DNA from: Escherichia coli
GTDB taxonomy: Bacteria; Pseudomonadota; Gammaproteobacteria; Enterobacterales; Enterobacteriaceae
Reading direction: 5' to 3' (one strand)
Length of the DNA: 64,000 nt
NCBI RefSeq assembly: GCF_013315695.1
Contig: NZ_CP054353.1
Made by a program: the position numbers. Below, one piece after another: positions 36,001-39,000 of the stretch. Numbering within the stretch: the first letter of the stretch is position 1; the number at the start of each line of letters is the position of its first letter.

Positions 36001-39000
36001 GCCGGGTTTGGTCCGACCCTCACTTTTTTATTTGTTTCCCCATTACTTAATCCCATTATCGTCGGGTTAATGTGGGTGACCTTTGGCTGGAAAGTTACCT
36101 TGTTGTACGAGATTATCGCCGCCGGCGTCTCCGTACTTGCCAGTATTATCCTGGATTCCCTGGGATTTGAACGTCATATCATTGCCAGTAAAAGCTCATC
36201 AGCAAATTGTTGTGCTCCAGCCAAAACTTCGCCGGGGACGACATATACGCCAATAAAAGTGAGTTGCTGTAGTCCAGCGGCTAAAGCCATTGAGAAACCT
36301 GTAGTAAACTGTTGCAGTACCAAAGCTGTGGTAAGTATTAATCCCATAAAACTAGCCACCAAAGATGCGTTGCAACAGTTTAAAGATGTACTGCCATATC
36401 TTTTGTTAGGGGTATTAATAGGCTCTTTTATTTATGGCTTTATTCCCTCAGAGTGGATTGCCGCTCATGCAGGGGCAGATAATCCCTTCGCCATCCCATT
36501 GAGCGCCGTTGTTGGTATTCCGCTATATATCCGGGCAGAGGCAGTTATCCCTCTGGCATCTGTTTTGATGACAAAAGGAATGGGTCTGGGAGCATTAATG
36601 GCATTAATCATCGGCAGTGCCGGCGCAAGCCTGACGGAAGTGATATTACTTAAATCAATGTTCAGAATACCGATGATAGTTGCATTCCTGACGGTTATCT
36701 TAGGTATGGCTATCTTGATGGGCTATTTGACTCAAATGCTATTTTAAATAGATGCCAGCAGTAAACTATAAGGAGTATTGTGAGTGCCTTATCCTTCTGA
36801 GTAGAAAATCATAGATAGGATAATCCTTAAAAATAACAAATAACTTAACTAATGCTTTGAGAATGATGACGGATCCGTCAGTAAGTCATCAATCGACAAT
36901 CACCACGCAATCATGCTTCTCTGACATTTTATCGGAGAAGCAATGTCTCTTTGTCTCAGTATCATCCCCCTTTTAAAGGGTAGATTTCAGTCGCCAATAC
37001 AACACATTTTTAAATACACTTTAACCTGGTTCATTATTACACATCTAAAACATCACAAAAATATCACTTCACACACTATCGGAGAACATCATAACTTCGG
37101 TAATGACTCCAACTTATTGATAGTGTTTTATGTTCAGATAATGCCCGATGACTTTGTCATGCAGCTCCACCGATTTTGAGAACGACAGCGACTTCCGTCC
37201 CAGCCGTGCCAGGTGCTGCCTCAGATTCAGGTTATGCCGCTCAATTCGCTGCGTATATCGCTTGCTGATTACGTGCAGCTTTCCCTTCAGGCGGGATTCA
37301 TACAGCGGCCAGCCATCCGTCATCCATATCACCACGTCAAAGGGTGACAGCAGGCTCATAAGACGCCCCAGCGTCGCCATAGTGCGTTCACCGAATACGT
37401 GCGCAACAACCGTCTTCCGGAGCCTGTCATACGCGTAAAACAGCCAGCGCTGGCGCGATTTAGCCCCGACATAGCCCCACTGTTCGTCCATTTCCGCGCA
37501 GACGATGACGTCACTGCCCGGCTGTATGCGCGAGGTTACCGACTGCGGCCTGAGTTTTTTAAGTGACGTAAAATCGTGTTGAGGCCAACGCCCATAATGC
37601 GGGCTGTTGCCCGGCATCCAACGCCATTCATGGCCATATCAATGATTTTCTGGTGCGTACCGGGTTGAGAAGCGGTGTAAGTGAACTGCAGTTGCCATGT
37701 TTTACGGCAGTGAGAGCAGAGATAGCGCTGATGTCCGGCGGTGCTTTTGCCGTTACGCACCACCCCGTCAGTAGCTGAACAGGAGGGACAGCTGATAGAA
37801 ACAGAAGCCACTGGAGCACCTCAAAAACACCATCATACACTAAATCAGTAAGTTGGCAGCATCACCCATACAACGACATAATAAAATATCAGCAAGAATT
37901 CCAAAAAGAATGTTACAAGCAAGTTAAAGATTTTACAACACCCTCTCGATACAATAGAATTAAAAAATGGGCACAAATGTCTGAATATCAATTCGAAATA
38001 TTTCAACACGATACGTTTCATCCTAAAAAAATGTCATACGCACCTTATTTAAAGAGATCGCTACCTGATGAAAAAACTATAAATTATGGGGTAGAAATAG
38101 AAACACCAATTGGCAAAAGAATTCGCTGGTAATGACTCCAACTTATTGATAGTGTTTTATGTTCAGATAATGCCCGATGACTTTGTCATGCAGCTCCACC
38201 GATTTTGAGAACGACAGCGACTTCCGTCCCAGCCGTGCCAGGTGCTGCCTCAGATTCAGGTTATGCCGCTCAATTCGCTGCGTATATCGCTTGCTGATTA
38301 CGTGCAGCTTTCCCTTCAGGCGGGATTCATACAGCGGCCAGCCATCCGTCATCCATATCACCACGTCAAAGGGTGACAGCAGGCTCATAAGACGCCCCAG
38401 CGTCGCCATAGTGCGTTCACCGAATACGTGCGCAACAACCGTCTTCCGGAGCCTGTCATACGCGTAAAACAGCCAGCGCTGGCGCGATTTAGCCCCGACA
38501 TAGCCCCACTGTTCGTCCATTTCCGCGCAGACGATGACGTCACTGCCCGGCTGTATGCGCGAGGTTACCGACTGCGGCCTGAGTTTTTTAAGTGACGTAA
38601 AATCGTGTTGAGGCCAACGCCCATAATGCGGGCTGTTGCCCGGCATCCAACGCCATTCATGGCCATATCAATGATTTTCTGGTGCGTACCGGGTTGAGAA
38701 GCGGTGTAAGTGAACTGCAGTTGCCATGTTTTACGGCAGTGAGAGCAGAGATAGCGCTGATGTCCGGCGGTGCTTTTGCCGTTACGCACCACCCCGTCAG
38801 TAGCTGAACAGGAGGGACAGCTGATAGAAACAGAAGCCACTGGAGCACCTCAAAAACACCATCATACACTAAATCAGTAAGTTGGCAGCATCACCGAATT
38901 CGCTTATCAAATCATTACCAGAATATAATCCCATAATATTGAACATTAGCGCTTTATAATCATTGAATAAAAATAGATTTTATGCACCTTTAAAAAAAGG

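Follow-up and report, generated by a model that had tools for sequence, protein, structure and literature searches.

A mobile two-gene cassette of Escherichia coli pairs an SpArsR-type regulator with an ArsP-family permease carrying vicinal cysteine pairs in its central loop

The cassette beside arsRBC

The window, a stretch of 64,000 nucleotides from an Escherichia coli chromosome (contig NZ_CP054353.1 of RefSeq assembly GCF_013315695.1), carries the gene order gor-dinQ-arsRBC, followed by a gene of the ArsR family, a permease gene divergent from it, IS1 and slp. The ArsR-family gene and the permease gene form an accessory two-gene cassette directly after arsRBC and are annotated only as 'ArsR/SmtB regulator' and 'permease'. 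We analyzed this cassette, and above all the permease, whose two halves are joined by a loop holding three pairs of adjacent (vicinal) cysteines (Table 1). ArsP permeases and SpArsR repressors are already known as kinds of protein; the apparently new points are that this cassette, common in E. coli and on plasmids, belongs with them and that vicinal cysteine units recur in the loop throughout the family.

The permease (RefSeq entry WP_001572035, start at 35746) appears in public sources only under the names 'permease' or 'YraQ-like'. Its open reading frame on the plus strand, taken from an upstream ATG (35734-36747), would encode 337 residues; the ATG at 35746 is the likely true start because it is the one chosen by RefSeq, homologues begin at an equivalent methionine, and a GAGG lies about 6 nt upstream. 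The protein matched Pfam ArsP_1 (PF03773; TC 2.A.119) over residues 13-334 with 177.2 bits against a cut-off of 32.3 (E = 5.5e-52) and aligned over its full length with Campylobacter jejuni ArsP (CjArsP) at 36% identity (E = 2e-69). Its best NCBIfam matches, to the SO_0444 Cu/Zn efflux family (NF033936) and to SaoE (NF040736), both fell below the equivalog cut-offs, at 108.9 bits against 300 and 84.9 bits against 325, respectively, and a PDB sequence search returned no match. Two of the eight cysteines lie in a TPFCSCS motif and the other six form the three vicinal pairs. All 91 homologues share TPFCSCS unchanged, and it aligned with Cys65/Cys67 of CjArsP, in keeping with the published finding that a C(S/T)C motif is universal in ArsP and takes the form tPF-CSC in cluster 2 (PMC4435449). 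We propose that these two cysteines are the substrate thiol pair. GIPLY, their counterpart in the second half of the protein, is one of the two most conserved motifs of the family. The ArsP-family identity given in a preliminary description of the window is thus borne out by the Pfam match, the likeness to CjArsP and the conserved motif.

The best PDB match of the divergent repressor was AfArsR (6J05). Its C-terminal EECC aligned with ENCC of AfArsR (Cys95/96), and no cysteine lies downstream of it, so that an equivalent of AfArsR Cys102 is lacking. SpArsR of Shewanella putrefaciens 200 is likewise an AfArsR-like protein without the third cysteine, and it senses methylarsenite, MAs(III), not arsenite (PMC11868830, PMC13236881). 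When SpArsR and the arsP promoter were placed in E. coli, expression reached 73% of the derepressed level with 1 μM MMAs(III) and 9% with 50 μM As(III) (PMC12124457). We rebuilt SpArsR and the arsP promoter from this biosensor construct, the supplement of PMC12124457 having dropped bases in its text, and the reconstruction was validated in that it reproduced the published Cys101/102 numbering. The E. coli repressor is 58% identical to the rebuilt SpArsR, with Cys73/91/92 aligned with Cys83/101/102. The two operator-like palindromes in the region between the divergent E. coli genes (35640-35745) overlap promoter-like hexamers. In the arsP promoter of S. putrefaciens 200, which SpArsR controls, one site agrees with palindrome 1 at 21 of 22 positions, and another, related site agrees with it at 18 of 22. 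Given the identity of the regulators, their shared cysteine pattern, the operator match and the known response of SpArsR, orthology with the SpArsR-arsP module (Sput200_1227/1226) is the best reading of the E. coli pair; selectivity for MAs(III) in vivo was shown for the Shewanella regulator itself. Shewanella permeases of the clade to which the E. coli permease belongs are 48-55% identical to it and have cysteine-rich loops; here, the S. xiamenensis permease (L030) served as a proxy for that of S. putrefaciens 200. A PADLOC scan detected no defense system and gave only generic winged-helix matches of the regulator.

Table 1. Features of the cassette, with thioredoxin genes found at other loci
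Feature	Position	Strand	Remarks
ArsP-family permease gene	35746..36747	+	333 residues; reading frame also opens at upstream ATG 35734
TPFCSCS motif, Cys70 and Cys72 (333-residue numbering)	35944..35964	+	break between predicted half-helices 52-66 and 71-83
Variable, predicted-disordered inter-repeat loop (ERH...ATK)	36169..36363	+	65 residues; predicted local distance difference test (pLDDT) 50-58 in the AlphaFold2 model
Cysteine pair 1 (N-CC-A)	36208..36213	+	from the translated sequence
Cysteine pair 2 (S-CC-S)	36265..36270	+	from the translated sequence
Cysteine pair 3 (N-CC-S)	36310..36315	+	from the translated sequence
GIPLY, second-repeat counterpart of TPFCSCS	36514..36528	+	break between predicted half-helices 249-260 and 264-276
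SpArsR-type ArsR/SmtB repressor gene	35319..35639	-	106 residues; divergent from permease; NCBIfam metalloregulator subfamily
Repressor Cys91-Cys92 codons	35364..35369	-	predicted two-coordinate methylarsenite site
Operator-like imperfect palindrome 1, ATTTCGATAATACCAGAAATAT	35664..35685	.	22 nt; overlaps promoter-like site
Operator-like palindrome 2, ATTTCGATTATTCTGGAAATAT	35701..35722	.	22-nt imperfect palindrome
Thioredoxin genes 3' of permease (other loci)	L008 5920-6159; L009 5767-5997; L012 4227-4490; others		Pfam Thioredoxin_3

The cassette is horizontally mobile and is the E. coli counterpart of the S. putrefaciens arsR-arsP pair, placed here beside the inorganic-arsenic operon arsRBC. 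Of 5426 complete E. coli genomes, 2217 (41%) contained at least 80% of the cassette query, and the cassette occurs on about a thousand sequenced plasmids. Its G+C content is 45.3%, compared with 50.1% for arsRBC. Conjugative plasmids carry variants of 75-80% identity in the same two-gene arrangement; one, on an IncFII plasmid, adjoins IS26, and another, on an IncX1 plasmid, has a mer operon on one side and a Tn3 transposase on the other. More distant pairs lie beside lnu(G) in a P1-like IncY element (48% identity) and, flanked by Tn3 transposases, in Acidovorax (64% identity), where the two genes are co-directional rather than divergent. The E. coli copy therefore differs from the S. putrefaciens pair in being accessory, low in G+C and also carried by conjugative plasmids and Tn3-type elements. 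About nine of 30 sampled plasmid entries had poultry, turkey or pig as their source. At the plasmid loci L002-L005 the regulator and permease move as a unit, and on plasmids the pair travels without other ars genes. E. coli K-12, the host of published assays, is not known to carry the cassette.

Vicinal cysteine pairs in the inter-repeat loop

The preliminary description had noted three vicinal cysteine pairs in a soluble, low-complexity segment of the permease and had suggested that the segment captures soft metals or metalloids and relays them to the channel. The three pairs are confirmed (ANCC...CCSTKA, residues 157-198 of the 337-residue frame, 36202-36327, within the span 36170-36330 given there), and the description of the segment is a fair one: the loop is mildly hydrophilic, rich in Ser, Ala, Thr, Pro and Lys, and was modeled at low pLDDT. 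Three or more CC pairs arose in a fraction of 4.05e-4 of 200,000 trials in which the 65-residue loop was shuffled, and shuffling of the whole permease gave P = 5.5e-5. No tandem repeats were detected in the DNA of the E. coli loop, the repeat-like CC-A/S-P/T-x-K pattern there being too degenerate for detection.

To place the loop within the family, one genome per species was scanned, yielding 80 loci. Across these 80 species the inter-repeat loop ranges from 26 to 112 residues with 0-10 cysteines. Cysteine-rich loops occur in Shewanella, Vibrio, Endozoicomonas, Alistipes, Syntrophaceae, Lentisphaeria, Aquificaceae, Coriobacteriia and others, and in many marine gammaproteobacteria the loop is minimal, with 36 residues and a single CxxxC. 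The spacing of the cysteines is strongly biased. Among 71 distinct homologous loops with at least two cysteines, CC was observed 110 times against 25.6 expected (4.3-fold enriched) and CxxxC 32 times against 19.7, whereas CxC (8 against 23.6) and CxxC (1 against 21.5) were depleted. The usual context of the pair is S-CC-S/D/G/T. A preference for CC together with avoidance of CxxC would fit two-coordinate binding of an arsenical, as in SpArsR, rather than typical Cu, Hg or Zn sites. Binding of an Fe-S cluster or a zinc ribbon was rejected, both the CC spacing and the avoidance of CxxC being atypical of either, and a lipidation signal does not fit as a role for the loop cysteines.

Comparison of close orthologues indicates that the loop cysteines are selectively kept, because the loop has diverged to 20-80% identity while the membrane core remains 83-98% identical, yet every loop retains two to four CC pairs. 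In 112 close homologues from Escherichia, Salmonella, Aeromonas, Citrobacter and relatives, 75% of the 782 loop cysteines lie in CC and 16% in CxxxC. The number of units is nevertheless labile. In Lentisphaeria and Endozoicomonas, recent tandem repeats in the DNA code for the CC units, and plasmid alleles of 98% identity differ by an in-frame indel of 32 residues that carries two CC pairs. Natural alleles with 2, 3 or 4 CC units occur as forms of 345, 359 and 377 residues. Representatives of 50%-identity clusters were searched exhaustively, giving 4555 matches at E ≤ 0.001; among the best 150 of these, loop cysteines were present in 43 of 74 full-length proteins, with up to seven CC pairs in a 134-residue loop (P0270). 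A distant family member, P0411, instead has a histidine-rich loop (nine His among 45 residues), a hint at a different metal.

The loop pair is also found in CjArsP (315 residues), the sole characterized orthologue. A review credits this permease with export of MAs(III) and of trivalent roxarsone, Rox(III), but not of As(III) (PMC6205960). CjArsP resembles the E. coli permease in its TPFCSCS motif with Cys65/Cys67 and its linkage to ars genes, and at the same inter-repeat position it has the vicinal pair Cys169-Cys170 (KQKSCCANT), conserved in 110 of 110 Campylobacter sequences of 315 residues. The preliminary description had named absence of the loop from functional orthologues as one observation that would speak against it, and in this orthologue the loop is present with its cysteines. 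The two permeases differ in that CjArsP has one CC in a 51-residue loop rather than three in 65, has an extra Cys277, and is encoded in an operon with acr3 rather than divergently from its regulator. Only the TPFCSCS cysteines of CjArsP were reportedly tested, according to the 2015 abstract of Chen, and our literature searches found no study of its loop pair.

Cysteines in the loop go together with a particular kind of regulator. All 36 permeases at loci with an SpArsR-family regulator have loop cysteines, and for none of the 13 permeases without them was an ArsR-family neighbor detected in the locus; the association gives a Fisher P of 1.5e-4, a value not corrected for phylogeny. The vicinal cysteine pair is itself present in 36 of 36 SpArsR-family regulators, and about 15 of the 80 homologous loci adjoin acr3, arsA, arsD, arsC or arsH. 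The suggested link to metalloids is supported in part, by the orthology of the regulator to the methylarsenite-selective SpArsR, which uses a vicinal pair of the same kind, and by the cysteines of all 36 linked loops; the relay to the channel is taken up below. Earlier work described a variable hydrophilic insert, in one study between transmembrane segments (TMS) 4 and 5, without assigning it a function (PMC2963123, PMC7176098), and literature searches with the RefSeq accessions, or for ArsP with vicinal or cysteine-rich, yielded no description of the loop.

Two further observations concern the neighbors of these permeases. A further cysteine follows the CC by nine residues or fewer in 10 of the 36 SpArsR-family regulators, as Cys102 does in AfArsR, and takes the form ECCxDEEC in Vibrio and Shewanella loci among L013, L014, L026, L029, L031, L033, L039 and L071; such regulators may sense inorganic As(III). 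The equivalent of Cys73 of the E. coli repressor is kept in nearly all of these regulators. In several distant relatives, a leaderless thioredoxin gene of about 80 codons (Pfam Thioredoxin_3) lies directly 3' of the permease gene. The permeases so linked include both cysteine-bearing and cysteine-free loops, and no inverse relation between loop cysteines and a neighboring thioredoxin gene was seen by inspection.

Predicted fold, a possible capture mechanism and its alternatives

We examined a predicted structure to assess on which side of the membrane the loop might lie. An AlphaFold2 model built with the 91-sequence alignment (mean pLDDT 87.9, predicted template modeling score 0.83) has long helices at residues 2-39, 115-138, 200-232 and 308-332, two half-helix pairs interrupted at TPFCSCS and at GIPLY, and two more broken helices. 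The two halves of the protein, each a 4-helix repeat, are homologous (hhalign probability 95.9%, E = 5.3e-9), with TPFCSCS aligned with GIPLYIRAE. The Lys plus Arg (K+R) value is 2.8 for loop L1 and 0.4 for its homologous counterpart L5, a difference that would be expected if the repeats are inverted, and the flanks of the central loop are rich in Lys and Arg (2.8 and 3.0). A topology of six transmembrane (TM) segments and two re-entrant hairpins with the N terminus outside places 12.1 K+R on the inside and 2.5 on the outside; the values from plain 8-TM models are 5.9 and 8.7, which makes a simple positive-inside count indecisive. The six-TM arrangement would put the inter-repeat loop in the cytoplasm, and the leaderless thioredoxin genes of relatives fit cytoplasm-facing thiols. 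On the combined basis of charge bias, internal repeat, fold similarity and thioredoxin neighbors, we consider a cytoplasmic loop probable. A fold of the ion-transporter superfamily type (ArsB, DASS/INDY, AbgT, CNT) would call for inverted repeats, each with a re-entrant hairpin and then a broken helix, a plan to which the permease may conform.

From these features we infer a fold, a topology, a substrate and a hand-off from the loop, which together describe a mobile module of the SpArsR-arsP type that senses and exports organoarsenicals with the loop as a capture arm; we assign this reading a probability of about one half. The repressor would bind the two palindromic operators, by orthology with SpArsR, and would let go of them once methylarsenite or another trivalent organoarsenical bridges Cys91-Cys92. 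The permease would export such compounds by means of two homologous repeats of opposite orientation. Each repeat would contain a re-entrant helical hairpin, and the cysteines of TPFCSCS, placed mid-membrane where the first hairpin has its tip, would bind the arsenical through two thiolates. Each vicinal pair of the loop could hold one R-As(III), and the disordered loop could act as a tethered arm that raises the local substrate concentration at the cytoplasmic mouth before its arsenical passes to the hairpin cysteines by thiol exchange, much as ArsD serves ArsA in trans. The number of CC units could be tuned by duplication and deletion, the loop improving transport rather than enabling it. That the loop is accessory is shown by the variation in CC copy number and by homologues beside ars genes whose loops lack cysteine; the basic function does not depend on it. 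Judged from the sequences, the cysteine-studded loops are probably built-in traps that pass methylarsenite-like toxins to the pump site. The broader idea of the loop as a built-in metallochaperone, its CC units tuned by tandem duplication and feeding a minimal two-hairpin transporter, with its wide occurrence in E. coli and on conjugative plasmids of food-animal isolates perhaps reflecting past use of arsenical feed additives, is offered more tentatively.

The proposed relay is plausible. Two known systems work in a comparable way. The metallochaperone ArsD also uses flexible vicinal cysteine pairs to pass trivalent arsenic to a cysteine site, that of ArsA, and it reportedly does so by thiol exchange, as described in 2007 by Lin, Yang and Rosen. 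ArsD has no sequence kinship with the permease, however; it is a separate soluble protein that serves an ATPase rather than a secondary carrier, and it binds inorganic As(III) with three thiols. In the Mer system (C-terminal Cys558/559 of MerA and the pairs of MerT and MerF), a mobile CC pair acquires the soft ion and hands it to a buried cysteine pair. The Mer transporters have other folds and another substrate and work in import, whereas the regulator and family of the E. coli permease point to export of an arsenical.

Several points weigh against the sensor-exporter reading. The literature we searched held no transport, binding or topology experiment on this permease or on any loop of the family. 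A Foldseek search against the PDB gave nothing significant (best E = 0.6), and a published sequence analysis assigned ArsP to another superfamily, with the TMS arranged as 4+4 (PMC7176098). Homologues of the Staphylococcus and Bacillus type have short loops without cysteines, although some adjoin arsADRB or arsB. In the repressor, the conserved third cysteine, Cys73, might allow three-coordinate binding across the dimer. On plasmids the cassette adjoins a mer operon or stands alone, and the relative SO_0444 handles Cu/Zn, both of which would leave room for another soft-metal substrate.

The last two points lead to the alternative that the substrate of the module is a soft metal (Hg, Cd, Cu, Zn or Ag) or a reactive sulfur species and that the CC pairs are metal sites. 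SO_0444 shares its Pfam family and CSC motif with the E. coli permease, as does SaoE, a proposed metal efflux protein; these are the two best NCBIfam matches, the regulator weakly matches BigR and YgaV, and the histidine-rich loop of P0411 points in the same direction. The NCBIfam scores are far below both cut-offs, however, and the E. coli regulator is of the ArsR type with the SpArsR cysteine pattern and operator, not of the ZntR-like MerR type that controls SO_0444. CxxC, the usual spacing at Cu, Hg and Zn sites, is nearly absent from the loops, and the ars neighbors of about 15 of the 80 homologous loci also speak against this alternative. We regard a soft-metal module as unlikely.

Slightly less likely still is that the loop is a cytoplasmic sponge for thiol-reactive arsenicals or metals, protecting the cell or the transporter without any hand-off to TPFCSCS. 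The disorder and low complexity of the loop would suit such a role, and a freely varying CC count suits capacity as well as avidity. Three to ten thiol pairs on a scarce membrane protein would nevertheless be negligible beside millimolar glutathione, and, across many phyla, the loop is strictly tied to the transporter at a place between its repeats, which points to a part in transport.

A periplasmic loop, which would take substrate from the channel to release it outside or capture external substrate for import in the manner of the outward cysteine pairs of MerT, MerC and MerF, is marginally more doubtful again. If the protein is read as plain 8-TM with its K/R-rich first loop inside, the central loop does fall outside, and one plasmid copy adjoins mer genes. 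The mirror image of the hairpin topology, however, would leave 12.1 K+R outside and 2.5 inside, the flanks of the loop are themselves rich in Lys and Arg, and free vicinal thiols would be oxidized in an aerobic periplasm. Firmicutes and Coriobacteriia, which lack a periplasm, have such loops too, the thioredoxin partners are leaderless, and CjArsP is an exporter.

It is improbable that the loop is a redox- or ligand-operated gate that switches transport on and off without transfer of substrate. The loop joins the two repeats, and their motion against each other would power an elevator-type cycle; thioredoxin genes are also frequent neighbors. A gate, however, should have a fixed geometry, whereas loop length and the number and positions of the pairs vary and some loops have no cysteine. 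That the cysteines are a neutral by-product of a fast-evolving, repeat-prone, low-complexity linker is hardly credible, given the shuffle tests, the spacing bias and the persistence of CC pairs across phyla while all other loop residues change.

If the reading as an organoarsenical sensor and exporter is correct, a specific role, that of a methylarsenite-type sensor with its exporter, would replace the generic annotation of the cassette, which would complement the neighboring arsRBC and lead us to expect differences between strains in organoarsenical tolerance. The loop would also illustrate a design principle, tethered vicinal dithiols in variable copy number, that could serve in arsenical biosensors or capture tags.

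Sequences flanking the cassette

A G+C-rich hairpin with T runs (35302-35320) lies where arsC and the second arsR gene converge and could terminate the transcripts of both. On the other side of the cassette, the window has two identical copies of IS1 (37103-37870 and 38128-38895), 261 bp apart. Strain AF3, otherwise identical here, has one IS1 followed by an intact hypothetical gene of 1224 bp; compared with AF3, the window has the second IS1 and lacks most of this gene.

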